Below, piece after piece: positions 2,595 to 52,887 of a stretch of 52,887 nucleotides of DNA. The DNA comes from an uncultured Bacteroidales bacterium (GTDB lineage: Bacteria > Bacteroidota > Bacteroidia > Bacteroidales > UBA10428). The translations under genes and the position numbers were made by a program. The notes beneath the pieces were generated by a model. It had not been told where the DNA came from. It did no database searches and saw only the letters and a list, made by a program, of their open reading frames with translations. The stretch is taken from positions 1 to 52,887 of the forward strand of contig CAZMVE010000007.1 in NCBI GenBank assembly GCA_964569585.1. Direction: 5' to 3'. Each line of letters begins with the position of its first letter. Within the stretch, counting starts at the first letter, position 1.

Positions 2595-3491
2595 TTACAA
2601 CGGAAGTTTATTAATACTCTCGATGCTAAGATTCCTGTAAAAAATTTCTGCACCTTCCGATTGAAGCTGGATTTTTCCACTAAGTAGAGGCTCAAATGTA
2701 TTATTAATCCATTGCCGGAGATTTTTGGCTCTAAGAACGACTTTGTTGTTGATTACATGCATGGATTCATCATTATACACATATAAGTCGACATAATTCC
2801 ATTCACCTATTGGATTTTCGTAATCGCCGGAAGCCTTGACTGTATATAAGGCCTCATTCACATGAACCGTAGACCCTTCTTCGTCGTAATGATACCATGA
2901 TGATGTAGCTGGTTGATCGATGGTTGCATTTATTTCAGCATATACATCATCTACCCTCACAAAATCGCCTAAACTGCCATTCTTTATTTCCAGTTCGAAT
3001 GAGCGCATCCAATAGGTCCAGAATGCTCCGTATTCTCCTACAGAATGATAGCACAAACCTGAATTTTTAGGTAGATCTTCTCTTGGCGGATGCTGGAGTG
3101 TTCCCCATTTATATTCAAGATGAAAATGATAATTTTCATACTCCTCTTTGGTTATCAGACCTCCCCATATATAACCTGAAATTCTGATTGCAGGTCCTCC
3201 ATCTTCCTCTACAACCGAAAAAATGTTCATCGGATCATTATTCAGCCCAAATGCTTCGGTATAAATTCCGGATGAATTTCGGTTGAGTAGGGGTACTTCT
3301 TGTGAAGGATCGGGTATACCCAGGTATGTATCCCACCCCGACAGATCAGTTCCATTAAATAGTTTGGTTGCTTCAGTATCTTTATCGCAGGTTTGAATAA
3401 GAATCCATAGGATTGCCAAGAGGCCAATTCGTATTGAGAAGCAGAATAACCGAAAAATATTGTCTCCGACTAACACTACAGATCGTATCAT
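2595..3491 (-). CDS. DUF1080 (3-keto-disaccharide hydrolase-like) domain protein, secreted
   Basis: Motifs FNGTDLSGWDTY, GGLITKEEYENYHFHLEYKW and the C-terminal GKIQLQSEGAEIFYRNLSI are typical of DUF1080. The ATG at 3491 precedes a hydrophobic signal-like segment. The longer track ORF would overlap the upstream gene. Confidence 0.75.
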   Translation of the reverse strand: MIRSVVLVGDNIFRLFCFSIRIGLLAILWILIQTCDKDTEATKLFNGTDLSGWDTYLGIPDPSQEVPLLNRNSSGIYTEAFGLNNDPMNIFSVVEEDGGPAIRISGYIWGGLITKEEYENYHFHLEYKWGTLQHPPREDLPKNSGLCYHSVGEYGAFWTYWMRSFELEIKNGSLGDFVRVDDVYAEINATIDQPATSSWYHYDEEGSTVHVNEALYTVKASGDYENPIGEWNYVDLYVYNDESMHVINNKVVLRAKNLRQWINNTFEPLLSGKIQLQSEGAEIFYRNLSIESINKLPL

Positions 3492-3531
3492 ATTTCTTGA
3501 ACTTCCCAGGCAAGTATGTTTACAAGTTATT

Positions 3532-3885
3532 TTACTCATCCTTATTTCCGTGCTTCTGAAGCTTAATATCCACAGGAACAATTGCTACAAGGCATCCTTT
3601 TGGCATATTAAGGAGTTCATTTTCCACTTTTTTATAAAATGCCTTCAGTTTATCGGTTCTGTCAATAATTTCAATAGTAACCGGTAATTTTTCCGTAAGT
3701 TCCCAGAATTTTGAAGAATTGATCTTGCTGCTTAATCCGAAGCCCATTATTCCCCTGTATACAGTAATCCCTGATATACCTTCCTCTTTTGCTGCGTGAA
3801 CAATAAATTCATACAGGGCTTTTGATCCGATTCTGTCGGTGGTGCTTGCATATATTTTTAGAATGCTGAATTCGGAAGTATTCAT
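3532..3885 (-). CDS. DUF190 (PII-like) protein, the usual crcB companion
   Basis: Pattern LKIYASTTDRIGSKALYEFIV...GISGITVYRGIMGFG...LPVTIEIID matches the DUF190 consensus. The gene starts 1 nt after the crcB stop. Confidence 0.8.
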   Translation of the reverse strand: MNTSEFSILKIYASTTDRIGSKALYEFIVHAAKEEGISGITVYRGIMGFGLSSKINSSKFWELTEKLPVTIEIIDRTDKLKAFYKKVENELLNMPKGCLVAIVPVDIKLQKHGNKDE

Positions 3886-3886
3886 T

Positions 3887-4246
3887 TTATAACAAATTTG
3901 AAGTTACATAACCCAGGAACACTGCAACAAAACCCAGTGTAACGCTAAGTCCGGTATAAAGCAGAACGGAAGCAATCTGGCCGGAGTGTAGCAACATCAG
4001 ATTTTCGCTTGTAAATGTGGAAAAGGTAGTAAAACCACCACATAATCCCACCATCAGGAACATACGCCATTCCACGGTAAGGATAGCACTTTTATCAGCA
4101 ATGCCGGCAAGAAAGCCGATAAGAAAACTGCCAATAATATTAACCAGTAAAGTCCCAACCGGAATCGATAAAATATCAATTGACAGGTTGAGTTTAGATA
4201 CAAAATAACTGGACACACTGCCTATAAAACCACCCAAACCTATCAA
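3887..4246 (-). CDS. crcB: Fluoride ion channel CrcB/Fluc
   Basis: 119 aa with four hydrophobic helices and the GGFTTFSTF motif. The start codon is TTG at 4246. Confidence 0.88.
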   Translation of the reverse strand: MIGLGGFIGSVSSYFVSKLNLSIDILSIPVGTLLVNIIGSFLIGFLAGIADKSAILTVEWRMFLMVGLCGGFTTFSTFTSENLMLLHSGQIASVLLYTGLSVTLGFVAVFLGYVTSNLL

Positions 4247-5430: not shown

Positions 5431-5619
5431 ATGCCAGGATTTGACAGAACTGGTCCTGAGGGAAAAGGTTCCCGTACAGGAAGGGGATTAGGAAAATGTA
5501 ATCCCAATAACAAATCGGACGATACCGATACCCGGGAAGATAATGTAACAGGCAGACTGGGAAGAGCATTTGGCCGGGGTCGGGGGCTTGGAAGAGGAAT
5601 GGGCAGAGGTCGAAGATAA
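5431..5619 (+). CDS. DUF5320-like Gly/Arg-rich small protein (tandem paralog)
   Basis: N-terminus MPGFDRTGPEGKGSRTGRGLGKC, with tail GRGRGLGRGMGRGRR. GGAGG at 5421-5425 lies 5 nt before the ATG. Confidence 0.65.
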   Translation: MPGFDRTGPEGKGSRTGRGLGKCNPNNKSDDTDTREDNVTGRLGRAFGRGRGLGRGMGRGRR

Positions 5620-5650
5620 TTCGCTGAACGTTCATAAATGTATTCCTGAT

Positions 5651-5677
5651 AATCGCATTTTATAATGAAATGCGATT
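5651..5677 (+). terminator. Hairpin after the second DUF5320 gene (terminator or attenuator)
   Basis: AATCGCATTT (5651-5660) pairs perfectly with AAATGCGATT (5668-5677) across a 7-nt loop, followed by ATTTAATTGATTT. Confidence 0.55.
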
Positions 5678-5702
5678 ATTTAATTGATTTATCTGATATA
5701 AT

Positions 5703-6443
5703 ATGCTGCTAACTTATATTATTATAGCAATACTTATTGGAAGTGCAGGAAGTGTGTCACTGGCTGGTCTTCTTCTATTATTGAAAGAAGATAAACTGCA
5801 AAAAACAGCAACTTATCTCGTATCGCTTGCAGGTGGCACTTTGCTGGGAGCAGCTTTTCTGGGTATGATGCCCAAAGCGATCAATCTGCTGACCGGCAGC
5901 ATTATTTTACAGATTACGCTGGTTGGCATCGTGGTATTTTTTCTTATTGAAAAAATAATTCTTTGGCGTACATGCTATAATAAGGAATGTGAGCGCCATC
6001 AGAATGCATCTGCACCTTTAATTCTTATCGGGGATGCCTTTCATAATTTTATCGATGGAATTGTAATAGCTTCTGCATTTGTTACATCAATTAATTTTGG
6101 AATTCTGGCTACAATAGCAGTATTTGCTCATGAAATTCCCCAGGAACTGGCCGATTTTGGAGTATTAATAAAAAACGGTTATTCAGGAAAAAAGGCATTC
6201 TGCTACAATATGATTTCAGGTCTCACTGCTATTCCAGCGGGGATTCTTGCCTATTATTACCTCAGTTCTACTAATCAACTTATACCCTATGTACTCGCAT
6301 TCTCAGCAGCCAGCTTTATATATATTGCTCTTGCCGGCCTGGTGCCGCAGATGCATAAAAAAACACAACTAAAGGATTCCATTATTCAATTTATACTTAT
6401 CATTCTGGGAATTTTAATTATTTACTTCTTAAAAGAAATATAA
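5703..6443 (+). CDS. ZIP-family divalent metal permease
   Basis: Multi-pass membrane protein with HNFIDGIVIASAF and HEIPQELADFGVL, the ZIP metal-binding helix motifs. Confidence 0.85.
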   Translation: MLLTYIIIAILIGSAGSVSLAGLLLLLKEDKLQKTATYLVSLAGGTLLGAAFLGMMPKAINLLTGSIILQITLVGIVVFFLIEKIILWRTCYNKECERHQNASAPLILIGDAFHNFIDGIVIASAFVTSINFGILATIAVFAHEIPQELADFGVLIKNGYSGKKAFCYNMISGLTAIPAGILAYYYLSSTNQLIPYVLAFSAASFIYIALAGLVPQMHKKTQLKDSIIQFILIILGILIIYFLKEI

Positions 6444-16247: not shown

Positions 16248-18497
16248 TTATTCCTTCACCATTAATTTCACATATTCTTCCCCGGTCTCCATATAGAAGG
16301 TAACCATATAGGCTCCCTCTTGAAGCATATTGGTATTAATTATCTGCTGATTCTGACTTTTAATTTCAGCTATGAGCATTGTTTGTCCAATAATATTAGT
16401 GAAAACAATCCGGTTAAGCGAAGCTGCATTATCAATGATAACAGCATTGTTAAACGGATTAGGATAAATGTTCAATGCACCTGTTAAATGGTCTACAGAA
16501 GTAATATATTCTTCAAATTCAACACTCACGGATGCATCGCCTGATAAGTTTTCCAGTGTGTATAATTCTTCTGTATTACCCGAAACAACAACACCATCAA
16601 CTCTCCATTCTTTAACACTGTATCCGGTATTGGGGCTAGCAATGAAAGCTATGTTTTTTCCTTCCTCAACTATATCACCCGAAGTGATCCCAATACCGTC
16701 TACTAATGCAGCCAGGCTTCCATTTCCTCCCACTACATTAAAGTCTACTGTAAATAATCCGGTAGCATTTCCATAAATAACAAAAGGTAATCCCTGAGGA
16801 GTGCCTGTTCCGCTATCATTCATATCTATCCAGGTCGTTGAACCAACATTGTATTGTAAGGCATTTCCCGTTGTTGTCTCACCAAAAATGGTAATGGGGG
16901 GGGCATAGGGACCGAATGCCAATGAACCAGTAGTTATTACTTCAATCCAGTATGTACCTTCTTCTAATACAAGTGGTGTTCCAAGTAATGCATGAATCAT
17001 CATTATGGGCCGATCAGAATTTAACAAATCAGTCTCGAGAGCTCTATACACTCCCGTCCAGGATGTATTAGTTAAAATATTTGTTGATAAATCCCCATAA
17101 ATCACTGTTCCTCCGTCGTTCGGAGCTGCATCCCATATTTGCATCCTTAAATCATTAATAGTAGAACTTTCTGTTGATCCTGCTTGATAGCCATAGAAAA
17201 CTAATGATTCTATTGTCCAATAAGAGTTAGCAGGTATTGTGAATTCATCAGCGATAGTATAATCTGGAATATAAAAACTGAATCCGATAGTACCCATACT
17301 TAATGAAGTATTAGCTAATGCCGAAACACCATAGCCGTTGAATCCACTTACAGGGTTTGTTACAAAGCCACCAATACCTGAACCTCCAGCTTCAATACCA
17401 TTATTAAATAATTCTGTATCAGAATCTCGCTCAAATTCAACAGTAACTGTGACTGCTTCTGTGAGGTTTTCGAGAGTGTAGGTGAGTTCTGTATGGTCAG
17501 TAACAACAGCAGCATTAACTATCCATTCTTTCACCTTGAAACCAATAACAGGGTGGGCAGTGAATTCAATATTCTTAGCTTCCTCAACAACATCTCCTGA
17601 AGTAATATCGATTCCATCGACTTTTGCTGACAGACTTCCATTTGCCCCCTCGACATTAAAGCTAACAGAGAAGTAACTTGTTGAATGTCCATAAATGATA
17701 AATGGAAAACCCTGGGGAGTTCCGGTACCACTATCTGTAAAATCATTCCATACACCACTGCTATTTTGCAGTGCATTCCCGGTTGTTGTTACCCCTACAA
17801 TGGCAATTGGATTGGCCCAGGGGCCGGAAGCCAATGTTCCTCCGGCTGAATATTCAACCCAATAGTTTCCTGCAGGCAATTCCAGAGGCGTACCCATTTC
17901 GACACGTAATCCCATAATCGGACGGTTCTCATCAGCAGTTGTCTCCGATACTCTGTAAACACCCGTCCAGTATGCTTCATCAAGGACATTGGTTACCAAG
18001 TCGCCATATGATACGGTTCCACCTGCATTGGGAGCTCCTCCAGACCATATTTGCAATCTTAAATCATCGATGGTTGGAATGGTAGTTGATCCGGTCTGAT
18101 AGCCAAATACTATAATCGAATCAATTGTCCAGATAGTATTGGCTGGAACTGTAAAATCATCGGCAACAGAGTAAGTACTTGTAATCTGAAAACCAGCTCC
18201 AAATGTGTTAAGACCCAGTGTTGTAAATAAGGTTGAATAATCAGAACCGCCGGGTCCTGCACCGGGATCTGTTACAAATCCTCCAATACCTGAACCACCT
18301 GCAACAATGCCGTTGTTATATATTTCTCCGTCAATACTTTTATCAATAAAGTTATTTACTGGAGATGTAAATACGGGTAATATATCCATTTCGGATGAAA
18401 TGGATACTGTTTCAGAAACTTCACGATCATTTGTTTTTTGAGCAAAACCAGAGAGTAAAGAAAAGTTAACCAACAACAGTAAAAATAATTTTTTCAT
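16248..18497 (-). CDS. T9SS (type-A CTD) secreted protein with an internally duplicated ~300-aa module containing InlB-B-repeat-like domains
   Basis: Signal peptide MKKLFLLLLVNFSLLSGFAQ. The two modules start NNGIVAGGSGIGGFVTDP and NNGIEAGGSGIGGFVTNP. The C-terminal YPNPFNN...MVTFYM...VKLMVKE is a T9SS sorting domain. Confidence 0.8.
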   Translation of the reverse strand: MKKLFLLLLVNFSLLSGFAQKTNDREVSETVSISSEMDILPVFTSPVNNFIDKSIDGEIYNNGIVAGGSGIGGFVTDPGAGPGGSDYSTLFTTLGLNTFGAGFQITSTYSVADDFTVPANTIWTIDSIIVFGYQTGSTTIPTIDDLRLQIWSGGAPNAGGTVSYGDLVTNVLDEAYWTGVYRVSETTADENRPIMGLRVEMGTPLELPAGNYWVEYSAGGTLASGPWANPIAIVGVTTTGNALQNSSGVWNDFTDSGTGTPQGFPFIIYGHSTSYFSVSFNVEGANGSLSAKVDGIDITSGDVVEEAKNIEFTAHPVIGFKVKEWIVNAAVVTDHTELTYTLENLTEAVTVTVEFERDSDTELFNNGIEAGGSGIGGFVTNPVSGFNGYGVSALANTSLSMGTIGFSFYIPDYTIADEFTIPANSYWTIESLVFYGYQAGSTESSTINDLRMQIWDAAPNDGGTVIYGDLSTNILTNTSWTGVYRALETDLLNSDRPIMMIHALLGTPLVLEEGTYWIEVITTGSLAFGPYAPPITIFGETTTGNALQYNVGSTTWIDMNDSGTGTPQGLPFVIYGNATGLFTVDFNVVGGNGSLAALVDGIGITSGDIVEEGKNIAFIASPNTGYSVKEWRVDGVVVSGNTEELYTLENLSGDASVSVEFEEYITSVDHLTGALNIYPNPFNNAVIIDNAASLNRIVFTNIIGQTMLIAEIKSQNQQIINTNMLQEGAYMVTFYMETGEEYVKLMVKE

Positions 18498-18807
18498 AAG
18501 ATAAGTTTTTAATTTATTGTAAAATTTGATAATGTTGACTTTAATAAATTTATAATAAATAATTATCTTATGCTCTAATTATTAACAAAGAGTTGGTCCA
18601 TTCAATTCTGATTATATCAGTTTTTCGCTATAGCGTTGGGATTTATAATTAATATATAAAAATTAAATTGTTGAAACTTTGTTGTTAGTTATTCGGAAAC
18701 CTGGCTTGATCTAATATTTTTTTATTAAACTTGAATGATTTTCTTTTAAAATGCAGAATAACTTATAGAAATTAAAGTCTTAAATATTAACCAAACTTAA
18801 AATTACG

Positions 18808-20043
18808 ATGAATAAATCTTTATTGATTTTGATTGTTCTGGCAATCTTTTTCTACTGCTGTTCTAATAAAAATACCATAGAACATAATTCATACTCTTTT
18901 GAACCTATTCCTTTTAAGCTGGAGGACGATGGTAAGTGGGGCTTTATTGATTTTGAAGGGAATATAATAATTGACCCAAAGTATGAAAATAAACCTACCT
19001 ACTTTAAAGAGGGTTATGCAATAGTTAGTGATGATACGGCATACTATTTTATTTCTACTATAGGAGATACGGTTGGATCCTACTATAAAAGTGCTCAACT
19101 ATTCTGCGAAGGTTTGGCATTGATCAAAGACAAAGAAAGAGAATTATACTTTATTGATTCTACCGGCGCACTACTTTTTAAGGTCGACACTATAGCAAAC
19201 GATGATCTGACAGAATGTAGTTCTTTTAAAAATGGACGGGCTTTAATTAAAATTTTGAAAAGTAAATATGGATTTATAAATAATAAGGGAAATATCGTTA
19301 TTAAACCAAAATATTTCGAAGCCCAAGAATTTTACGAAGGGTTAGCTTACGTGGAACTGGTGAATGAAGATGAAGATGAAGATGATGAGGATGTAAAAGT
19401 TGAAAAATTTTTCATTGATACAACGGGTAAAATCGCTATTAAGCTTGATTCTGAAATTGAATGGGTGCATAATTTTAATGAGGGAATGGCAGCTTTTAAG
19501 GATACTGCCGGTTGTGGTTTTATGAACAGTAAAGGTAAGATAGTGATTCCTCAGCATAAGAACTGGCAGGATCTGACAAACTACGTTAATGGCTATGCTG
19601 CTTATCAATGTGGAGGAGACTGGGGAGTGATAGATAGCACGGGCACCAAAGTGTTAAGCTCTGTTTACGAACGTCCGCCTGCCTTTTACAATGGACAGGC
19701 CATAATTAAAGAAAACAATAAGTATGGAGTAATTAATTTAAAAGGAGAAAAAGTAATTAAGTGCTCCTATCATCATATTTCCTATCCTTTATTTAACGAC
19801 AGATATTTTGCCAAAGACGGTAAATACTATGTGATGATTGATCCTGCAGGAAAACAATTGAGTGAGATAGAATTTTCGAGAATTGACCTGATTCCGTTGC
19901 TGCGCTTTAGTTTTATCCCAGGTTATATTGTCGTTGGCGAAAATTTGGGAATCAGTGTGAGTTTACTTGAGGGTGATTCAGAGGAGAACGAAGATTTTTA
20001 TGACAATGTCAACGATGAATTAACAAAACTATATAGTAACTAA
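18808..20043 (+). CDS. WG-repeat (KWG) lipoprotein
   Basis: Lipobox FFYCCS. Units recur in the form GKWGFIDFEGNIIIDPKY, KYGFINNKGNIVIKPKY and KYGVINLKGEKVIK. Confidence 0.8.
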   Translation: MNKSLLILIVLAIFFYCCSNKNTIEHNSYSFEPIPFKLEDDGKWGFIDFEGNIIIDPKYENKPTYFKEGYAIVSDDTAYYFISTIGDTVGSYYKSAQLFCEGLALIKDKERELYFIDSTGALLFKVDTIANDDLTECSSFKNGRALIKILKSKYGFINNKGNIVIKPKYFEAQEFYEGLAYVELVNEDEDEDDEDVKVEKFFIDTTGKIAIKLDSEIEWVHNFNEGMAAFKDTAGCGFMNSKGKIVIPQHKNWQDLTNYVNGYAAYQCGGDWGVIDSTGTKVLSSVYERPPAFYNGQAIIKENNKYGVINLKGEKVIKCSYHHISYPLFNDRYFAKDGKYYVMIDPAGKQLSEIEFSRIDLIPLLRFSFIPGYIVVGENLGISVSLLEGDSEENEDFYDNVNDELTKLYSN

Positions 20044-20073: not shown

Positions 20074-21699
20074 ATGAAAGTAACTAGTTATATATCACTG
20101 ATCATTGTTTCGTTAGTGCTATTGCAGTGTGGTAAGCAACCTGCATTTGATTCACTTGTCCCATACCAGGATAAAGAAAACTCATACTGGGGATATATTG
20201 ATTTTAATGGAAAAATAAAAATCGATCCTTCGTTTAAAAATTTACCTGGTTTATTTTATGAAGGCTATGCTTTAATAGCTTCTTCAGACGGAAGTATTGA
20301 TTATATAAACAAAACAGGGAATGAATACGAAAGAAATTATATCGAGGCCACTGATTTTCAGGAAGGAGTTGCATTTGCAGTTAAAGACGATGAGTATCCC
20401 TGTATGCTTGATTCTAAACTGGAAGAAGTCAAGGTATTAGAGAAGGTTGATAAAATCAATATTCCAAGTGAAGGATTAATCTGTTTCAAAAATACCAGGG
20501 GGAAGTGGGGGTACATGAATAAAGAATTCGATATAATAATTAAGCCAACCTACGATGCAGCCTATAGTTTTAGTGATGGATTGGCATTAATAGAAAAGAT
20601 AGAATATGATACAACAGGTGAAAGTAAAATTGAAAAAGTACTTCTTGGATTTATCGATTCGGAAGGAAATGAAGTAATAAAACCAACAAGTAACCTGTCA
20701 ATTGTTCGTTCGTTTTCTGAGGGAATGGCGGCATACTCTGATGCGATTGGCTGGGGATGGGGCTTCATTGATAAAATGGGTAAAAAAGTTATCCGGGCAA
20801 AAGAAGAGTGGCAACATGTCACCGATTTTAATGAAGGTGTTGCATCGATCGAGATATCAGGATTATGGGGTTTAATAAACAAAAAAGGAGAGATCATTTT
20901 AAATTGCAAATACAACGACGCTATTGTATTTTCTAACGGATTAGCTGCTGTTGAAAAAGATGATAAAATAGGTTTTATCAACCGGAAAGGCAAATGGATA
21001 ATTGAACCTGTATTCGATGATATTCTTCTGGATTTTACTCATCGGAAAGCTATTGTTCTAAAGAATAATTTTTTCATTTTTATTAACAAGCGAGGTAAAC
21101 AGATCAAGAACAATGAATTTTATAATATCGATTTTCCTGTTGCTTTAAACTCATCTGTACGAAGTGACTTTTTTGATATTGAACCTGTTATCGATACTCT
21201 AATTTCAAAAATTACTACTGAGAGTGTGAATGGACTTTCTGAAAGTACTTCATTATCTGATGCAATGAAAATTTACCATTTCGTCAATTCAGATTTACCG
21301 GAAGATTCCCGAATCAAGTATATTGAATTACAAAATATTAATATGGATAAAGAGATCGATATTACAACAACTTTAAATTTCAATAAAAATGTATCCATTC
21401 CTATAAAGCAATTTACAAGTTATAATTACTGGTGGTACTATGAAGAAATAGTGGGTTATAAACCAAATACTTCAGCAAAATTAAATTCAATTGAATTTGA
21501 AATCGATCTGGCAGGGCGAAAGGAAGGGAAAGCTGATAAACTGGCGAAGGGATTTAAAACACTATTTGAACAATATAGCTATAACATGGATGAAAAATCA
21601 TCTTCTGATGAGAAATTCGTGCTAAATGGCCCTGATAGTGATATCAAAGCAATAATTAAATTTGGGGATAACTACGTTTCAGTCATACTTGATATGTAA
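20074..21699 (+). CDS. WG-repeat (KWG) protein, larger paralog
   Basis: Signal/lipobox VLLQCG. Repeats include YWGYIDFNGKIKIDP, GKWGYMNKEFDIIIKP, LWGLINKKGEIILN and KIGFINRKGKWIIEP. Confidence 0.8.
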   Translation: MKVTSYISLIIVSLVLLQCGKQPAFDSLVPYQDKENSYWGYIDFNGKIKIDPSFKNLPGLFYEGYALIASSDGSIDYINKTGNEYERNYIEATDFQEGVAFAVKDDEYPCMLDSKLEEVKVLEKVDKINIPSEGLICFKNTRGKWGYMNKEFDIIIKPTYDAAYSFSDGLALIEKIEYDTTGESKIEKVLLGFIDSEGNEVIKPTSNLSIVRSFSEGMAAYSDAIGWGWGFIDKMGKKVIRAKEEWQHVTDFNEGVASIEISGLWGLINKKGEIILNCKYNDAIVFSNGLAAVEKDDKIGFINRKGKWIIEPVFDDILLDFTHRKAIVLKNNFFIFINKRGKQIKNNEFYNIDFPVALNSSVRSDFFDIEPVIDTLISKITTESVNGLSESTSLSDAMKIYHFVNSDLPEDSRIKYIELQNINMDKEIDITTTLNFNKNVSIPIKQFTSYNYWWYYEEIVGYKPNTSAKLNSIEFEIDLAGRKEGKADKLAKGFKTLFEQYSYNMDEKSSSDEKFVLNGPDSDIKAIIKFGDNYVSVILDM

Positions 21700-21757
21700 A
21701 AAAAGAATTAAACATTTTCATTGAATTTCTCAATGGAAACAGTTAAAGTATAAAAAT

Positions 21758-21791
21758 AACTCTCCGGTGAATTTAAAATTTCCGGGGAGTT
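21758..21791 (+). terminator. Probable intrinsic terminator of the WG-repeat gene pair
   Basis: AACTCTCCGG (21758-21767) pairs with CCGGGGAGTT (21782-21791), with one G-U pair, followed by ATGCTTTT. Confidence 0.5.
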
Positions 21792-22079
21792 ATGCTTTTA
21801 ATAAGATTTTGATCGTTATCGGATTATTTCTCTTTGCATCTCATTGCATATGACAAACAATTTCTATTAAAACAACAGCTGTATTTGCTATTAAGTCAAT
21901 TATGCAAGTACTGATTTCTATTTAAAGGTATCGAAACTAATTATTAAAGTTGAACTTTCTCAATAAGGCATAAAGGTCTACCAGGGTTTTAAAGCTATTT
22001 ATAAAGCTAAAATTGCAACATTTTTTCAGGATAAACGTTACAAAAAATAACCACAAAACATAACTAAAACAGTTCAAGT

Positions 22080-32735: not shown

Positions 32736-33134
32736 TATAGATATTTTAGGGTTATTAGTGATTCAATATAACGGCAAAATATTAATAGGTTTAAAAACAA
32801 ATTCTAAATTGTTACAAATATAAAAATATCATTTTCAATTAATTAACTATATATAATTTAGATTAGATATAAATAAGATATTTCTCTTGTTTCAAACGCC
32901 AGTAATAACAAGGAAAAGCATCTATGTCGTACCGCTACTTGGAAGCTTTATTTTTTTGATAAAAGGAGAAAAAAAGAGGATAAACGATCCTACTGAAATA
33001 AGAAATATATTAGATGGATTTTAATTTACCTGGGTAGATAAATCTTTACTAAATAATAGAATAAAAAAGAGTTTGCCCCCTGATTACTATTTACAAGTTA
33101 ATCGGAAACAAACTCTTTCCCGTAAAAAAACGAA

Positions 33135-33506
33135 TTAAAATAAACGATATCCCTGGTTTATAAAACTAACTGTGATACGGTATTTGTTTCCATTCAATAC
33201 CGGATCAGCTTTTATTTCAGCCCGATTCAGTAAAAGCTCAGTAATGTGATTGAGCGATTTATTGTTGCTACTGATTTCATAACTTGTCAATTCTGAATTT
33301 TCATCAACTTTAAAGATAATAGTCATTTTGCATTCTTTGCAGTTGCCTATAAATTCCTCAAAAGGAACTTTTTCGATTACATTATCCAGTTTGCTGATTA
33401 ATTCCGAACGTGCAGAAGTCTCTGATTCATTTTCATTTCCAAATGAAGTTGTAAAAGCCATAGTTAATATTACCAGGCAGCTGAGTAGAATTTTTTGAGT
33501 TTTCAT
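33135..33506 (-). CDS. Small secreted hypothetical protein
   Basis: The ATG at 33506 gives MKTQKILLSCLVILTMAFTTSFG as a signal peptide. I see no recognisable family motif. Confidence 0.5.
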   Translation of the reverse strand: MKTQKILLSCLVILTMAFTTSFGNENESETSARSELISKLDNVIEKVPFEEFIGNCKECKMTIIFKVDENSELTSYEISSNNKSLNHITELLLNRAEIKADPVLNGNKYRITVSFINQGYRLF

Positions 33507-33720
33507 GATTGTTGGTTTTAATTTATAATTCAAAATTACAGGGAAAGGATTACTCATGTGTCACCACAGGGTAAACAGATGTAAAAAAATGTCATGAGAT
33601 AAATAAAACAATAGAAAAAGTGGGACTGTAAATATTAATTGTAATCGACAAACCTAAATTTCAAAAATAGAAATGCATAAATTGCATGCCAGAATTGTAT
33701 TTAATACATAAAGACTCAAA

Positions 33721-35346
33721 GTGCTTTATTACAGGAATGCTATAAAGTCATCGCTTAATCTGATATTCATTGTCTTCCTTATTTCTGGTTGCAACCGGAA
33801 CAGGCAGGTAATTCAAATTGAGAAGAGAGAAAGTGTTGATTTTCAGAAAGAGTTATCTGAATTACTCGATACGGTGCAATTATCGGGATTGTTTACCGAC
33901 TCTAAAACTTTTGTCGATTTTCCGCTTAAAACTACTCCCGACTCAATTATATACCTGTTTAATTCTCAAAGACATGACTACAATTTTAATTTACCTTCCT
34001 TTATTGCCTTGAATTTTGATACTTTATCAGCCTGTTACGTAAGTTATTCAACCCAACCGGAGCACTCAATTACGAAGCACATTGATACACTATGGAGCCT
34101 TCTTACGCGGCATCCGGCTTCGCAAAACCTTTCCTCACTGATCTCACTGAAATATCCTTACATTGTTCCCGGCGGCAGGTTCCGGGAAATTTATTACTGG
34201 GACAGCTACTTTACTATGCTGGGACTCGCGGAGAGTGATCAAGACCATATGGTTAAATATTTGGTTGATAATTTTTCTGAGCTTATCAATACTTACGGAC
34301 ATATTCCGAATGGTAACCGAACCTATTACTTAAGTCGCTCGCAACCTCCATTTTATGCCTCGATGATCGAATTGCTTGTCTCAATTAATGATTCGGTTAT
34401 GCTGTCTGATTATCTACAATCGCTTGAAGCAGAGTACAATTTCTGGATGACCGGAAAGGAAAAATTAGGTAATGAAGATCCGGCACTTTACCGGACAGTC
34501 TGGCTTGATGACAGTACTGTTTTAAATCGTTATTGGGATAATATCTGCCTGCCACGGCCCGAATCCTATAAGGAGGATATGGCACTCTATACATCGTCCG
34601 GACGCGATTCTTCAATATATAGGGATATAAGGGCTTCGGCTGAATCGGGATGGGACTTCAGCAGCCGGTGGTTTGAAGATACGTATTCACAAAAATCGAT
34701 TAATACTACGCAAATTATACCTGTCGATTTAAATTGCCTGCTGTATAATCTTGAGAGAACATTATTCCATGCATTTCTTGAAATTAATGATACAGGGCAT
34801 GCTGAAAAATATCGTAACCTGGCTAAACGACGTCTGAAGGCCATCAACCGTTTGCTGTGGGATCCGGAAACTGGTTTTTATCATGATTACAATTTTATTA
34901 AAAAGGATCATACGGAAGTATTATCGCTGGCAGCCATGTATCCTTTGTTTTATGAAATTGCCGATAGTCTGCAAGCCCTGAAAGTAAAAAACAGGATAGA
35001 AAATAAGTTTTTATATAGATACGGAGTAGTCACAACGCTAACACAGCCGCTTACGAAAGAACAATGGGACTATCCGAATGGATGGGCTCCTTTGCAATGG
35101 ATAACGTATGCCGGTCTTATTAACTATGGTTATAAAGAACTCGCCGACAAAACAGCTGTGAGGTGGATGCTAATCAATGAAAATATTTTTTATGGGAAGG
35201 GCGATCCTGAACAAAAAGGAAGGATACTCGAAAAATACAATGTCGTGGCCGGGAGCAAGGGTAAAGGAGGAGAATATAAATTGCAGGATGGCTTTGGCTG
35301 GACAAACGGTGTCTACATGAAATTTTTTTACCGTCAAGCTAAATAA
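33721..35346 (+). CDS. treA: Alpha,alpha-trehalase (GH37), lipoprotein
   Basis: Trehalase signature 1 PGGRFREIYYWDSYF and signature 2 QWDYPNGWAPLQ. Lipobox FLISGC. GTG start. Confidence 0.9.
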   Translation: MLYYRNAIKSSLNLIFIVFLISGCNRNRQVIQIEKRESVDFQKELSELLDTVQLSGLFTDSKTFVDFPLKTTPDSIIYLFNSQRHDYNFNLPSFIALNFDTLSACYVSYSTQPEHSITKHIDTLWSLLTRHPASQNLSSLISLKYPYIVPGGRFREIYYWDSYFTMLGLAESDQDHMVKYLVDNFSELINTYGHIPNGNRTYYLSRSQPPFYASMIELLVSINDSVMLSDYLQSLEAEYNFWMTGKEKLGNEDPALYRTVWLDDSTVLNRYWDNICLPRPESYKEDMALYTSSGRDSSIYRDIRASAESGWDFSSRWFEDTYSQKSINTTQIIPVDLNCLLYNLERTLFHAFLEINDTGHAEKYRNLAKRRLKAINRLLWDPETGFYHDYNFIKKDHTEVLSLAAMYPLFYEIADSLQALKVKNRIENKFLYRYGVVTTLTQPLTKEQWDYPNGWAPLQWITYAGLINYGYKELADKTAVRWMLINENIFYGKGDPEQKGRILEKYNVVAGSKGKGGEYKLQDGFGWTNGVYMKFFYRQAK

Positions 35347-48159: not shown

Positions 48160-49503
48160 ATGAAAATGAATAGATTATTGTTTTTTCTTACACTTATTTT
48201 TTTAATCCCTGCCCAGGGGATTGATGCACAAGCCGATATGGCAACAGGTACACCTGAATCTAACTTTTCGATTTATAAAAACAAGCTCAAGAAGAGCGAA
48301 GAAGGTCTGGCTGATGAGAAAAAGTCGTCCAGTGCCAAATTCTGGATTTCGCGTGCCGAACTGATGATGGATATATTTAATCTGCATCGTCAGTTTCTTC
48401 AGCCGGGTACACAGCAGATCCACGTAAATCTTATTTATCCTAATCCGGATGATAAAAAGACCTGGCAGGATGATGAAGGCAATCAATTTGAGGAACTGAT
48501 CTACGACAAGCTGAAGATTAAATTGAAAAACGGTGTAGTTGAAAATTTCGAAGAGCTGGAAGTATTATATGATAATCCACTTCACGAAGCTTTACGATCG
48601 CTTGAAATGGCCCAGAAAATTGATACTATTGGCAAATTAAGTAAGAAGATCAAGGAGGACTACACCAAGCTTACGCTGCATTTTGAAAGACTGGGAATTG
48701 AAGAATACTACCTGCCTGATTTCGCCGCATCTCATAAGTCATTTTCATCTATCGGGATTATCAACGAAAAGCCAGTGATGGAAGGTATTGTGGACACTAC
48801 ATTGCTTTTTTATGCAGGAATGGCAGCCTACCGGGCCGAAATGAACAACGAAGCTATTGAATATTTTGAAAAGGCCGCCAAATACAACTATCCTGAGCCG
48901 GAATTGTATATATACCTGAAAATTAAATACCTGGAGGTTGGAGATACTGCAAGTGGAATCAGAGCCCTTGAGAGAGGTTTTAAGTTGTTTCCCTCGAATC
49001 AGATGGTGCTTCGGGAGCTTATTAACTATTATCTTTTATCGGGCATGGCGGAAGAAGCCATGGAGTACCTGAAACTGGCACAAGAAGAAGATCCTAAAAA
49101 TTTGTCCTATATATCGGCTGAAGGATCGCTGTACGATAAAATGGGAGACCAGGAGAAGGCACTGACAACCTATCAGAAGTGTATTGATATGGATACGACC
49201 TTTTTCGATGCCTATTATAATATAGGGGTGATTTATTACAACCGTGCTTACCAGATGTATAAGGACGCCGAGAGTATACGTATAGCCAGGGATTATGGTG
49301 TTGCTGTCGATGCAGCCGATGTAGTGCTGGCAAAATCACTGCCTTATATGGAAAAGGCACATCAGATCGATCCCAAGGAAAGGCAGACCATTGAAACCCT
49401 TAAAACTTTGTATTATCGTATGCAGATGAATGATAAGTACGAAGAAATGAAAGCGAAACTGGAAGCATTGCCGCCACCAACCGAAGCGGGCGGGGTTAAA
49501 TAA
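48160..49503 (+). CDS. TPR-repeat protein with signal peptide
   Basis: Signal MKMNRLLFFLTLIFLIPAQGIDAQ. TPR-like units include AIEYFEKAAKYN, AMEYLKLAQEEDP and ALTTYQKCIDMD. Confidence 0.7.
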   Translation: MKMNRLLFFLTLIFLIPAQGIDAQADMATGTPESNFSIYKNKLKKSEEGLADEKKSSSAKFWISRAELMMDIFNLHRQFLQPGTQQIHVNLIYPNPDDKKTWQDDEGNQFEELIYDKLKIKLKNGVVENFEELEVLYDNPLHEALRSLEMAQKIDTIGKLSKKIKEDYTKLTLHFERLGIEEYYLPDFAASHKSFSSIGIINEKPVMEGIVDTTLLFYAGMAAYRAEMNNEAIEYFEKAAKYNYPEPELYIYLKIKYLEVGDTASGIRALERGFKLFPSNQMVLRELINYYLLSGMAEEAMEYLKLAQEEDPKNLSYISAEGSLYDKMGDQEKALTTYQKCIDMDTTFFDAYYNIGVIYYNRAYQMYKDAESIRIARDYGVAVDAADVVLAKSLPYMEKAHQIDPKERQTIETLKTLYYRMQMNDKYEEMKAKLEALPPPTEAGGVK

Positions 49504-49527
49504 AGGAATTTTAAAAAACACAAATAG

Positions 49528-49554
49528 GAAGGGAGATTATAAACGTCTCCTTTC
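49528..49554 (+). terminator. Probable terminator of the TPR gene
   Basis: GAAGGGAGA (49528-49536) pairs with TCTCCTTTC (49546-49554), a 9-bp stem with one G-U pair and a 9-nt loop, followed by a T-rich tail. Confidence 0.5.
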
Positions 49555-49559
49555 TCTTA

Positions 49560-50591
49560 ACATTTTCAATTTAACATAATATTAATTATACGACAACCGC
49601 AGAGAAATTGCGTTTCCCGTTTTATGAGGAAACTTTCGTATAGCTTTGCTATTTAACATAGAATCAGTACTAAGACTTCAGTTTTAGTACGGTAATGATT
49701 TTATGTTAAAGAAAGTTTCCACAGCTGTTAGTTTGATAATGGCAGTATTACCCAAGCTGTTTTTCATATGTTAAAGCAATTTCTCGGTGTTATTTGCATA
49801 CTGCCCTATAATATATCCGTAAAATTGATTTCTCGTCCCAGAAGCAATTTCTCCTCAGCGCTCAGAAAAAACCCAAGTGGTCAAGTATAATGGATATTAT
49901 ATTAAATAGAGCTTCACGTAGCCAGGATTAAACGCTCGTTTAAAACCATACAATCTCATTGAAAACCTCATAAAACGCCGTAGCGTTAATCATTTGTCGC
50001 ATAATTAGCACTATATTAAGTAGCCGCACGGCCTGCTCCAAAGCGCAAAAAATAAAATTTGTGAAGAATGTACAAATTTTATTTGTTTATCACTTCCACA
50101 GCCTCAACGCCGGCCGCACAGCTATAAGACAATAATGCCCACCGCGCTGTTTAAGTTCTATATAGCTTAAACGCTTATAAATGAGATATTTGACCTCTTA
50201 ACCGCAAGAGTATACGCATATTCGCTCCTTACCTCGCTCAGTTTGCTATACACATGCTATCATTCCGGTATTCCCCTACCGTATTGAGAAACACCAATTT
50301 CTATTTAACATAATAATATTATAATGGATTATACTTTTCCTTCAAATTCTTTCATGCCCTCGTGCCGGGCGGCATTTCTTTTGTCTTGAAACAAAAGAAA
50401 CGAAAATTCAAGAAGAAATAATGCTTCAGCCCGCCCTGTGCAATAGCAACAAAAATCGCACAACGAAAATGCGAGGCACCTTGTGGATTTTTCTAGCCAT
50501 TGCCCATTCCCGCTGGCTCTGGCCCGCTATTTCTTCTGGCCTGCGCACTGGAACCAAATTCAGCATTAATATCTATTTCACAGCTATAATA
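49560..50591. other. ORF-free, repeat- and hairpin-rich region of unknown nature (ncRNA, element remnant or recombination sites)
   Basis: It occupies most of the 1,088-bp gap between the convergent stops at 49503 and 50592. The only track ORF here (50421-50675, +) looks like a chance ORF and runs into the antisense of the 140-aa gene. Multiple exact short repeats and stems were read directly; see findings. Confidence 0.4.
49628..49720. repeat. 93-nt imperfect inverted repeat (bulged hairpin)
   Basis: GGAAACTTTC (49628-49637) pairs with GAAAGTTTCC (49711-49720). TTTAACATA (49652-49660) pairs with TATGTTAAA (49702-49710). AATCA pairs with TGATT. GTACTAA (49667-49673) pairs with TTAGTAC (49684-49690). 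Confidence 0.7.
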
Positions 50592-51014
50592 TTAAGGGAC
50601 ATTAACGGACCCCCCAGGTACAGTACCGGTGCTAGGTACATTTTTATTATGCCTGGATTTGATAATTCTACCTGAAGATAAACGTACCCTACCTTTGTTA
50701 TATGGATTTCTTTTTATACTAACCGGTAGATCTTCAAATTTATACCATATCTCCCAAGTTTCATCTGCTTTTAATCTTCTAGGTAATGGTCTATCATTAT
50801 GGATTACACCTATTTGCCCTGTATGCTTTCTAAAATAGACATGGGTTACTTCAATCTCTCTTTCATTCGAAAGATTTGTAACATTAAGAAATAGATATTT
50901 GTCTTTTATTCCTGAAAAAAAGCCACTATGAACTGTAAAACGAATTTTTCTTCTGTTCTCAATATATTTCCAAAAAAAGCCTATTAGCGAATTTAAAATA
51001 TCAGTAGGATTCAT
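50592..51014 (-). CDS. Hypothetical 140-aa protein, third gene of the OLD-nuclease operon
   Basis: ATG start 39 nt after the upstream stop. It has a hydrophobic N-terminus ILNSLIGFFWKYI and a beta-strand-rich body. I recognise no family motif. Confidence 0.6.
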   Translation of the reverse strand: MNPTDILNSLIGFFWKYIENRRKIRFTVHSGFFSGIKDKYLFLNVTNLSNEREIEVTHVYFRKHTGQIGVIHNDRPLPRRLKADETWEIWYKFEDLPVSIKRNPYNKGRVRLSSGRIIKSRHNKNVPSTGTVPGGSVNVP

Positions 51015-51053
51015 CTTTTTCGATTTTGTTTATAGATAAATGTTTATTTAGAA

Positions 51054-51464
51054 TTAATCGCTTTTCTGATCTTTCTTGTTTTCTTCTTGTTCATTTTTGA
51101 TAATATCGTATAGAGGATTTGCTGTTATTGGTTTTGAGTTTTCAGATATGGATTTCTTGTTTGAAATCTTTCCAGCATCTTTATTCAATGATTCAACAAT
51201 AGTACTATCTTCATATATTAAGCTTATAACTAGATATTTAGATCTTGTTTTGAAAGAGAAAAATTGTGGATGTTGATCAGGTTTGTGAGCAGTTTGACCA
51301 GCAATATTCTCAATATCACTATCCACAACGGTAGTGATTGAATGATTCACATAGGTATAATTTTCGTTCTTCAGAAATTTTGAAATCTCAGATACAGCAG
51401 AATTATTTTGATTTATTCTACCTGATTCTCCTATTTTAATTAAAAACAATTTATGCTTGATCAT
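51054..51464 (-). CDS. Hypothetical 136-aa protein, second gene of the OLD-nuclease operon
   Basis: ATG start 7 nt after the OLD-like stop. The C-terminal third is acidic and Lys-rich. I recognise no family motif. Confidence 0.6.
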   Translation of the reverse strand: MIKHKLFLIKIGESGRINQNNSAVSEISKFLKNENYTYVNHSITTVVDSDIENIAGQTAHKPDQHPQFFSFKTRSKYLVISLIYEDSTIVESLNKDAGKISNKKSISENSKPITANPLYDIIKNEQEENKKDQKSD

Positions 51465-51471
51465 GTCTAAT

Positions 51472-52887
51472 TCAATTGAGTAGTTTATTAGTTTTATTGC
51501 TAATTAGATTGAAAAGTTTTTCTACATATTTTAGTGCTTCCCTCCTGTCCTTTTCATTTAGACCAAAAATATCATCAAGAAGATATCTCATAATACCAAC
51601 CTTATTTATTGTTTCTTTCCTATTCTTAGGCTCTTCACCAGAGTATAAATGTTTCAAGTAATGTTCTCTCAGTAAATCAACAATTGGAGTTTTAATCTCC
51701 TTTACACTCTCTAGTTTAATATCCTTAAATGAAGTCTTAAAGTCAATAACAGATGACATTTCATGATAAAACTTATTATATGCATTAATATATAGCTGTT
51801 GGGGAAAAAGATCCTCAAATACTCTATTTGCATTGTTATTAAAAGCGTCATTAATTGTTACTTCTTCCCAATTACTGGTATTGAGAATTTCTGAAACCTT
51901 CTCGTTTTTTCGAATAACTCTTGAAATATCATCCGAATCAAAAAGCACAATTCCTTTTAGATTTAAAGAATTAATATATCGTATCGCGGATTTAATTTCT
52001 GTTGTTCCTTCAGCACTAAATATGTTCATCCATTCAAGGAATGGAAACTTGTTTTTTTCGAGAGAGAAATAATTAAACAACCTTGGTAAGGCATACTTCT
52101 CAGTTGATCCATCTACAATGATATTTATATCACCAACAAGAAATGAATCATTTAAAAAAACCCCAAGTTCCTTTCGAAGAACTTCAAAGTTATTTCTATA
52201 AACCTTATTTTGAATATACGTACCTAAATTGGAATTATCCTTTCTAATATAAAGTATACTGTCAATATCATCTCTTATGACTAAGAAAAGATTGTGGGTG
52301 GTATATAGAATTTGACTGCTACTATTTGTTATGGAACGAAAAGTTTTTAATAGATCCCGTGCTCCTTTTGGATGTAGATTCGAGCCTGGTTCATCAAGTA
52401 AAAAGATTTGATTCCTATTGTTTTTTCTGGTGAGAAAGTGTTTATTTACGATAAAGGCAAAGAAATATTGAAATCCGGGGCTTCTTTCACTTAGTTCAAA
52501 AAATTCATCATCTCGTCCAGGGATTTTCTCTTGAACAAGAATACTCACTTTATTATCGTTATAGGATATTTTGAAGGATAGATTGGAATCTTGTAAATAA
52601 TATTTTTTAAATAATTGACTAATTTGTAATGAATATTTCTCTGTAGCTTGGAATACTTTTTTAGATTTAAAAATATCATAATCCGTGCATTTGGCCAAAG
52701 TCAATAATCGACGCATTGATTCATGGTCTTTCTTACTACCCTTTAAATCATCAATTGTTGCAGGCTCGAGGCTTAATTCATCATTTGAGTAAAACTCAAT
52801 TTCTGGAAGCAGTCTATTTGATACATCCTGTAATAATTTATTATACTGCCTTTTATCTTTCAATTGTTCCTTAAGTTTTACTGCATT
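51472..52887 (-). CDS. OLD-family nuclease (ABC-type ATPase + TOPRIM), N-terminally truncated by the window edge
   Basis: ABC-signature-like LSERSPGFQ, Walker B IFLLDEP (52387-52407) and H-loop YTTH. The TOPRIM segment has IIVDGSTEKY (52093-52122) and VLFDSDD (51928-51948). The frame stays open from the TTG at 52863 to base 52887 (NAVKLKEQ), and no Walker A is visible, so the 5' end lies outside the window. Confidence 0.75.
   Translation of the reverse strand, partial: NAVKLKEQLKDKRQYNKLLQDVSNRLLPEIEFYSNDELSLEPATIDDLKGSKKDHESMRRLLTLAKCTDYDIFKSKKVFQATEKYSLQISQLFKKYYLQDSNLSFKISYNDNKVSILVQEKIPGRDDEFFELSERSPGFQYFFAFIVNKHFLTRKNNRNQIFLLDEPGSNLHPKGARDLLKTFRSITNSSSQILYTTHNLFLVIRDDIDSILYIRKDNSNLGTYIQNKVYRNNFEVLRKELGVFLNDSFLVGDINIIVDGSTEKYALPRLFNYFSLEKNKFPFLEWMNIFSAEGTTEIKSAIRYINSLNLKGIVLFDSDDISRVIRKNEKVSEILNTSNWEEVTINDAFNNNANRVFEDLFPQQLYINAYNKFYHEMSSVIDFKTSFKDIKLESVKEIKTPIVDLLREHYLKHLYSGEEPKNRKETINKVGIMRYLLDDIFGLNEKDRREALKYVEKLFNLISNKTNKLLN

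Follow-up and report, generated by a model that had tools for sequence, protein, structure and literature searches.

A predicted two-gene module of an OLD-family nuclease and a small partner protein on a low-GC island of an uncultured Bacteroidales bacterium

The stretch of DNA analyzed here (hereafter, the window) comprises 52,887 nt from an uncultured Bacteroidales bacterium (GenBank assembly GCA_964569585.1, contig CAZMVE010000007.1) and closes with three open reading frames (ORFs) on the minus strand. Gene 1 (51472..>52887) is open at the window edge, and its 3' part encodes residues 139 to 609 of a predicted 609-amino-acid (aa) ATPase-nuclease of the OLD family. Gene 2 (51054-51464) encodes a 136-aa protein and gene 3 (50592-51014) a 140-aa protein; the gaps are 7 nt between genes 1 and 2 and 39 nt between genes 2 and 3. 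Gene 3 is followed by a non-coding stretch of 1.1 kb, beyond which the opposite strand carries TPR and gyrA genes. A prediction made earlier from the sequence of the window alone (the original prediction) took all three genes to be one candidate defense system, in which an OLD nuclease works with two small partners unlike any described. The ORF coordinates bear out the tight coupling of the three genes, and the layout of the downstream DNA agrees with the statement that no helicase, reverse transcriptase, or HNH gene follows. In our reading, the core is a two-gene module, composed of the OLD gene and a dedicated small subunit encoded by gene 2, on an acquired island of low guanine-plus-cytosine (GC) content, and gene 3 is separate. 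On the strength of sequence comparisons, we place the probability of this reading at about one-half.

By its sequence, gene 1 encodes an OLD-family ABC-ATPase/TOPRIM protein. The part within the window includes the C-terminal half of the ABC ATPase, with signature (LSERSPGFQ), Walker B (IFLLDEP), and H-loop (YTTH) motifs, followed by a TOPRIM domain with DG..E (IIVDGSTEKY) and DSDD (VLFDSDD) motifs and a helical C-terminal region. The N terminus had been predicted to lie beyond the window; indeed, a database search retrieved a full-length 609-aa protein (P0001) that is 100% identical across the window part and has an intact Walker A motif (GINECGKT). The complete protein thus has the N-terminal ABC-type ATPase and the C-terminal TOPRIM domain with a DSDD cluster that characterize the OLD family. 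Pfam models matching gene 1 were AAA_21 (1.2e-10) and PF20469 OLD-like_TOPRIM (4.9e-05; 24.2 bits against a gathering cutoff of 23.2), and the precomputed Pfam domains of P0001 include AAA_15, AAA_23, SMC_N, and AAA_21. The best PADLOC model was Old, at 1.3e-18 for the window fragment and 1.9e-26 for the full-length protein. GajA models of PADLOC also matched (up to 8e-21), while AriA and AbiLi models did so only weakly. A profile built from 26 relatives retrieved 6P74, the Class 1 OLD of Thermus scotoductus, as the closest solved structure (2.2e-9). The Pfam, PADLOC, and structural matches therefore agree on the OLD architecture originally proposed.

Across the 26 relatives, the ATPase motifs GINECGKT, ERSPGFQ, FLLDEPG, and TTH are invariant. 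The first acidic column of the TOPRIM domain is Glu in 24 of the 26 aligned relatives and Asp (VDGSTE) only in the window protein and its closest relative, P0002, in line with the substitution noted in the original prediction. Because P0002 has the same Asp, the substitution is fixed in this subclade rather than a chance lesion. It is a conservative replacement.

OLD proteins are sorted into classes by gene context: Class 1 is a stand-alone gene found in variable neighborhoods, Class 2 occurs with the GajB helicase, Class 3 occurs in retrons, and Class 4 is split, as in PARIS (PMC10568477, PMC12392090). Class 1 OLDs can defend alone (PMC12392090). An archaeal "class 5" OLD, Cran1, shares an operon with a small membrane protein; Cran1 is essential and linked to the cell cycle, is not defensive, and has a dispensable partner, and at least 11 further OLD clades are uncharacterized (PMC12796447).

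The evidence that carries our reading is the pairing of gene 2 with the OLD gene. DNA around OLD homologs was searched by tblastn and with a hidden Markov model (HMM) of the gene 2 family. Of 12 distinct intact loci with available DNA, 11 had an OLD gene followed at once by a gene 2 homolog (the window, L002, L004 to L009, L084/L085, L086/L087, and L177). The gene 2 homologs so retrieved encode 115 to 161 aa, with a range of 35 to 100% identity given for the relatives. The OLD proteins of the paired relatives are 35 to 60% identical to that of the window, L177 being the most distant (35%). A word-based search found only three gene 2 relatives, including P0123 (48% identity), which is encoded 2 nt after the gene for P0002 (60% identical to the window OLD) in a 3.88-Mb genome. 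The start of gene 2 overlaps the stop of the OLD gene by 8 to 14 nt in 8 of the 10 loci examined; in the other two, the genes are spaced by 2 nt (L002) and 7 nt (the window). L177, a locus outside this set, has a 1-nt overlap. Likewise, a 118-aa ORF overlaps the OLD gene of P0007 by 14 nt. The pairwise identities of the OLD and gene 2 proteins also covary (Pearson r = 0.89, 45 pairs). Judged by gene order and divergence, gene 2 is a dedicated, putatively translationally coupled partner of OLD across a deep clade of Bacteroidota. The small partner postulated in the original prediction is accordingly a conserved one as far as gene 2 is concerned; gene 3, discussed below, does not co-occur with OLD across genomes.

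The intact locus without gene 2 (L178) belongs to a DUF2813-type subclade and has a convergent UvrD gene. In another locus, L010, the OLD copy is frameshifted and carries a deletion, with the rear half of gene 2 still present. We considered L010 as a natural OLD-gene 2 fusion and rejected it, since the frameshift and deletion are what join the OLD C terminus to the rear of gene 2. This decayed Bacteroidota-type module is located on a contig (3341-5259) of a cyanobacterial metagenome-assembled genome. For other small genes near paired OLD genes, no relationship to gene 2 was detected. An extra 58-aa gene in L004 gave an hhalign probability of 0.15%, and three genes upstream of OLD in L177 gave 0.7%. 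The latter (3335-4004) are tandem paralogs of ~74 aa with overlapping stop and start codons, located immediately 5' of the divergent OLD gene and overlapping its start.

Alignment of nine gene 2 members revealed a conserved N-terminal core of ~85 to 90 aa, in which nine positions do not vary (F7, F30, L31, Y38, N40, H41, S81, Y84, and D86). Beyond the core comes a charged tail of variable sequence that holds an invariant proline (P112), a short helix, and the motif P-x3-T-D-L/F-D-K. The family had no match in Pfam, NCBIfam, PADLOC, PHROGs, or PDB sequences, and sequence profiles of gene 2 and gene 3 retrieved nothing from the PDB. No copies of either gene were found on the phages or plasmids searched, and OLD relatives were present in phage and plasmid collections only at ≤31% identity. 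An AlphaFold model of gene 2, based on a three-sequence alignment, had a predicted local distance difference test (pLDDT) score of 62, with a beta-alpha-beta-beta core at ~80 and a disordered tail. Foldseek found no match to this model in the PDB at E<0.1. Against viral models, its best matches were very small phage proteins, among them Gp403 of Bacillus phage G (E 8.5e-3) and one labeled "Cse60" (E 5.6e-2). The Pfam Cse60 model matched none of the nine gene 2 family members, even at E≤10; the modeled Cse60-like resemblance is a lead and not an identification. Of the structure prediction recommended with the original prediction, the gene 2 core could be modeled, without a PDB counterpart, and the gene 3 model was unusable.

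These data bear on whether gene 2 matters to the nuclease at all. The protein of gene 1 might be an ordinary Class 1 OLD that acts alone, with gene 2 as a co-transcribed passenger or a regulator of expression. The closest structure and the best PADLOC model are indeed of Class 1 type, Class 1 OLDs need no partner for defense (PMC12392090), and the Cran1 partner can be dispensed with (PMC12796447). However, a passenger is hard to square with a pairing still seen where the OLD proteins are only 35% identical, with reading frames that overlap, and with correlated divergence. Nor does it fit easily with the conserved polar residues N40, H41, and D86 and the conserved tail motif. We therefore regard a solitary OLD as improbable.

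Gene 3 shows a different distribution. It is missing from 10 further distinct loci that pair OLD with gene 2, and it accompanies gene 2 only in L001 (100%) and in L003 (78%, with the gene 2-gene 3 order kept at 77 to 79% identity). Both loci are too closely related to the window to provide independent evidence of linkage. A 140-aa gene that follows OLD and gene 2 in L086/L087 was examined as a possible gene 3 homolog and was rejected, as it has no similarity to gene 3. The original prediction described gene 3 as an unknown small partner of OLD. Instead, a profile search placed it in a family of 427 cluster representatives (E≤1e-3), of which 282 reach E≤1e-10, and among 80 metagenome loci of this family none had an OLD or gene 2 neighbor. 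The same 80 loci had no conserved neighbor of any kind, and clusters of neighbors arose only from near-identical contigs.

Among the best 150 members of the gene 3 family, 61 are standalone proteins and 89 have extra domains on either side. A Pfam scan of these 89 multidomain members identified TIR_2 (n = 30), CHAT (n = 3), and protein kinase, EAD1, DUF4062, and Abi_alpha (n = 2 each). EAD7, SEFIR, GUN4, FHA, Metallophos, Lcl_C, pentapeptide, and DUF2321 were found once each. The fusion partners also match the TIR, PD-T4-6, SAVED_CHAT, and effector-nuclease models of PADLOC. The gene 3 core itself matched nothing in PADLOC, Pfam (E≤1), NCBIfam, PHROGs, or PDB sequences. No Pfam family listed for the 89 multidomain members covers the core, and the EAD1 and EAD7 matches lie outside it. 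No PADLOC model matches gene 2 or gene 3, in keeping with the original prediction.

The core of gene 3 spans ~115 aa and strongly conserves H29, N47, H58, R75, R80, W87, W90, R109, and S113. In the window protein, an N-terminal helix precedes a predicted beta-rich domain (residues ~20 to 138). This helix, originally described as hydrophobic, is amphipathic and does not resemble a transmembrane (TM) segment; about one-quarter of the family has a TM-like segment at this position. The AlphaFold model of gene 3 (pLDDT 48) was too poor for a meaningful Foldseek result. In its mix of partners, the family resembles the adaptor and effector-associated domains of bacterial conflict systems (EADs, TRADD-N, and Death-like; Kaur et al., PMC8195603), as a ~115-aa domain that occurs alone or fused on either side. 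The fusions that recall those adaptors are to TIR, CHAT caspase-like, kinase, phosphoesterase, EAD1/EAD7, GUN4, and pentapeptide domains. Unlike the named adaptor families (EAD1-11, TRADD-N, and Death-like), gene 3 matches none of their Pfam models and is predicted to be beta-rich. As the domain is joined elsewhere to TIR, CHAT, kinase, and EAD domains, it probably serves in sensing, in assembly, or as a small effector, and not as an OLD cofactor. Gene 3 thus probably shares the island as an independent gene. Most likely, it is a distinct immune-type module, made up of one gene, that arrived on this island in the present lineage. Co-transcription is possible; no terminator was predicted between genes 2 and 3.

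The distribution of gene 3 also bears on the single-system interpretation of the original prediction, in which OLD is the core and genes 2 and 3 jointly serve as sensor, regulator, or effector. All three genes are on one strand, spaced by 7 and 39 nt, and the first predicted terminator, a hairpin with a T-run (50456..50474, minus strand), is located ~120 nt 3' of gene 3, within the stretch kept in L003. In addition, the gene 2-gene 3 order recurs in L003, the three genes occupy the same low-GC island bounded by a hairpin repeat, and the gene 3 domain family is associated with immunity. Against these points are the absence of gene 3 from the other paired loci, the 80 family loci that have neither OLD nor gene 2 nor any shared neighbor, and the close relatedness of L003. 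A three-gene system is, in our estimation, unlikely.

The island (50402-52887) has a GC content of 31.1%, compared with 38.1% for the window, and is below all 202 sliding 2.5-kb windows; the original remark that the operon is very AT rich is thus substantiated. Because of this anomalously low GC content and the differing genomic contexts of relatives, the island looks horizontally acquired. Other local dips in GC content occur within the window at 18001-19000 (31.1%), 21001-22000 (29.5%), and 33001-34000 (31.3%) and may be further acquired segments.

At the island boundary is a repeat element of ~45 nt (50375..50420, minus strand) of the form TTTCTTCTTGAATTTTTG-TTTCTTTTGT-WTCAAG-ACAAAAGAAA. 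Its 10-bp stem is maintained by compensatory changes and its 6-nt loop is conserved. Homology between L003 and the window stops near 50376, and the L001 contig ends inside the repeat element. Further copies were located in L003 (812-838), L084 (4986-5012), L085 (648-674 and 4986-5012), L086 (8451-8477), L087 (8454-8480), and L009 (11528-11554 and 12264-12290). All copies in L003, L084/L085, L086/L087, and L009 point the same way as the OLD operon. The repeat lies where variable segments begin or end; in L084 and L085, the genes upstream of the repeat differ and those downstream are the same. Elsewhere in the 1.41 Mb of DNA retrieved, the repeat was absent, and the single copy in the window coincides with the island edge. 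Eight viral or proviral contigs (L169 to L176) also bear the repeat, in subfamilies with common longer flanks. Given this recurrence, including the viral and proviral subfamilies, the element behaves like an intergenic repeat of the repetitive extragenic palindromic (REP) or miniature inverted-repeat transposable element (MITE) kind. Alternatively, it could act as a common terminator or as a site of recombination. It probably explains the assembly breaks at the island edge.

On both strands, the non-coding DNA between the TPR gene and the island (49504-50374, ~870 nt) folds far more stably than shuffled sequence (z = -4.4 and -5.6), which substantiates the original description of the operon as abutting a structured non-coding region. 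This DNA holds several TTTAACATAATA-like repeats. A retron-like or other known non-coding RNA beside the island was considered and rejected, as Rfam gave no match in the window or in 49400-51100, even at E≤1. In Logan contigs of this sample, breaks fall at ~49595 and 50408, and a 7.5-kb contig bearing gyrA stops ~90 nt beyond the TPR gene.

The only other contig found with genes 2 and 3 is L001, a Logan contig of 2,455 bp that is identical to window positions 50408-52862 and breaks at nearly the same places. Extension of the contig, as advised with the original prediction, succeeded to the extent that the full-length protein was recovered as P0001. Inside the OLD coding sequence, the window contig and the independent L001 end ≤25 nt apart (52862-52887, near residues 139 to 147), and P0001 is recorded on a different contig of 29,941 bp. 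The coinciding ends suggest a strain-level branch point or an intragenic repeat.

The genes flanking the OLD-gene 2 pair differ in every genome examined, and several copies are alone on ~2.5-kb contigs. In L084, an AbiEii gene and an HD/HATPase gene are upstream of OLD, and L009 has a ParD/ParE-type toxin-antitoxin-like pair nearby, as judged by eye from translations. Taken at the level of sequence, this pattern of contexts is that of a small mobile two-gene module. The mobile accessory nature of the locus, part of the original prediction, is in keeping with its low GC content and with the end of L003 homology at the boundary repeat. We also note that L084 (1-4770) and L085 (1-4700) differ in upstream cargo, although their OLD-gene 2 pairs are identical and the same genes follow. 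This cargo consists of AbiEii and an HD-CE/HATPase_c_3 protein in L084 and of a histidine kinase/LytTR pair and a beta-lactamase in L085, a contrast that suggests a cassette-exchange hotspot. In L086/L087, a 178-aa protein encoded 30 nt upstream of OLD (5435-5971) has a weak Pfam match to CyanoTRADDas_TM, a TRADD-N-associated two-TM domain.

Many copies of the pair are flanked by core genes (clpB, smpB, ribosomal proteins, CTP synthase, and gyrA). Together with the precedent of Cran1 as a non-defense OLD (PMC12796447), such flanks would suit a housekeeping or DNA maintenance role, either in repair or in replication or cell cycle control, in place of an antiphage one. A role of this kind sits poorly with the patchy distribution of the pair, its different position in each genome, and its anomalously low GC content. 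The same can be said of the one decayed copy, the locus with defense or toxin-antitoxin neighbors, and the several copies on isolated ~2.5-kb contigs, which are typical of strain-variable DNA. We consider housekeeping quite unlikely as the function of the module.

Comparison with the established OLD classes suggests a new gene context. The window OLD resembles Class 1 proteins (P2 Old, 6P74, and Vc OLD) in its size (~600 aa) and in its best structural and PADLOC matches, although its 609-aa length is by itself uninformative about the helical insert of Class 2 TOPRIM domains (~50 aa longer). Unlike stand-alone Class 1 OLDs, it has a fixed, apparently translationally coupled small gene downstream and so departs from the single-gene arrangement; it and P0002 also differ from Class 1 in the Asp at the first TOPRIM acidic residue. 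As in Gabija, the OLD gene comes first in a two-gene operon and the partner follows immediately. In contrast to GajB, a UvrD-like helicase of ~500 aa, the partner has 115 to 161 aa and lacks helicase or NTPase motifs. No helicase gene follows the pair in the window or borders it in any locus bearing gene 2, and gene 2 has no helicase match.

With regard to Class 3, no reverse transcriptase ORF is downstream and no Rfam family occurs in the window. The upstream side of the OLD gene falls outside the window; in relatives, the genes there are unrelated and include no reverse transcriptase. PARIS and AbiL share with gene 1 an ABC ATPase of the same superfamily and TOPRIM chemistry. In those systems the two activities are in separate proteins, whereas here ATPase and TOPRIM are fused within 609 aa, and neither gene 2 nor gene 3 matches a TOPRIM or DUF4435 model. 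Like Cran1, the window OLD is in a conserved putative operon with a small gene. It differs from Cran1, which is archaeal and has a membrane partner, in its bacterial host, its predicted soluble partner, and its accessory, island-like context. We found no description of an OLD paired with a gene 2-type protein in the literature and libraries searched. The contention that the partners are unlike those of known OLD systems was therefore sustained, with no helicase, reverse transcriptase or non-coding RNA, split AriB, or HNH gene at the locus. Based on present sequence data, OLD-gene 2 appears to be a new gene context that belongs neither to Class 1 nor to Classes 2 to 4 and is nearest to Class 1 by sequence.

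From context and family, we infer that the OLD-gene 2 module serves in defense. In such a model, the OLD and gene 2 proteins would form a complex with gene 2 as a stoichiometric subunit. The core and flexible tail of gene 2 would gate or target the nuclease, either as an adaptor that senses a trigger or as an inhibitor released upon infection. Once activated, the ATPase-controlled TOPRIM domain would nick or degrade invading DNA, as do P2 Old, Vc OLD, and GajA. Several observations weigh against the two-gene defense reading. The Glu-to-Asp change could mean that catalysis is altered or weakened. The role ascribed to gene 2 is a guess, because the underlying model derives from three sequences (pLDDT 62) and has no significant structural match. 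A lineage-specific link of gene 3 to the pair is possible, since it is on the same strand at a distance of 39 nt, with no intervening terminator and the same order in L003. Several copies of the pair sit beside housekeeping genes rather than in obvious defense islands. Finally, the archaeal OLD with a small operon partner is non-defensive and its partner dispensable (PMC12796447), and by analogy a role outside defense, as for Cran1, is possible for the present module.

A more far-reaching interpretation, which we offer tentatively as a possibility, is that the pair represents an unclassified OLD class whose small, non-enzymatic subunit has a Cse60-like fold and gates or targets the nuclease. 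Gene 3 would then belong to an undescribed family of immune domains that also occurs in TIR, CHAT, kinase, and EAD proteins and is able to act by itself, perhaps recruited in this lineage into a three-part system with the OLD module.

OLD nucleases are sorted by their gene partners, and the triggering of the partnerless Class 1 proteins is a standing question in the field. A deep bacterial clade whose OLD genes come with a single small partner gene would provide a simple two-component case for studying how OLD nucleases are gated and would add a class to the family. Gene 3, in turn, represents a sizeable family absent from Pfam, NCBIfam, PADLOC, and PHROGs, and its fusions suggest that it is an uncharacterized building block of bacterial immunity.

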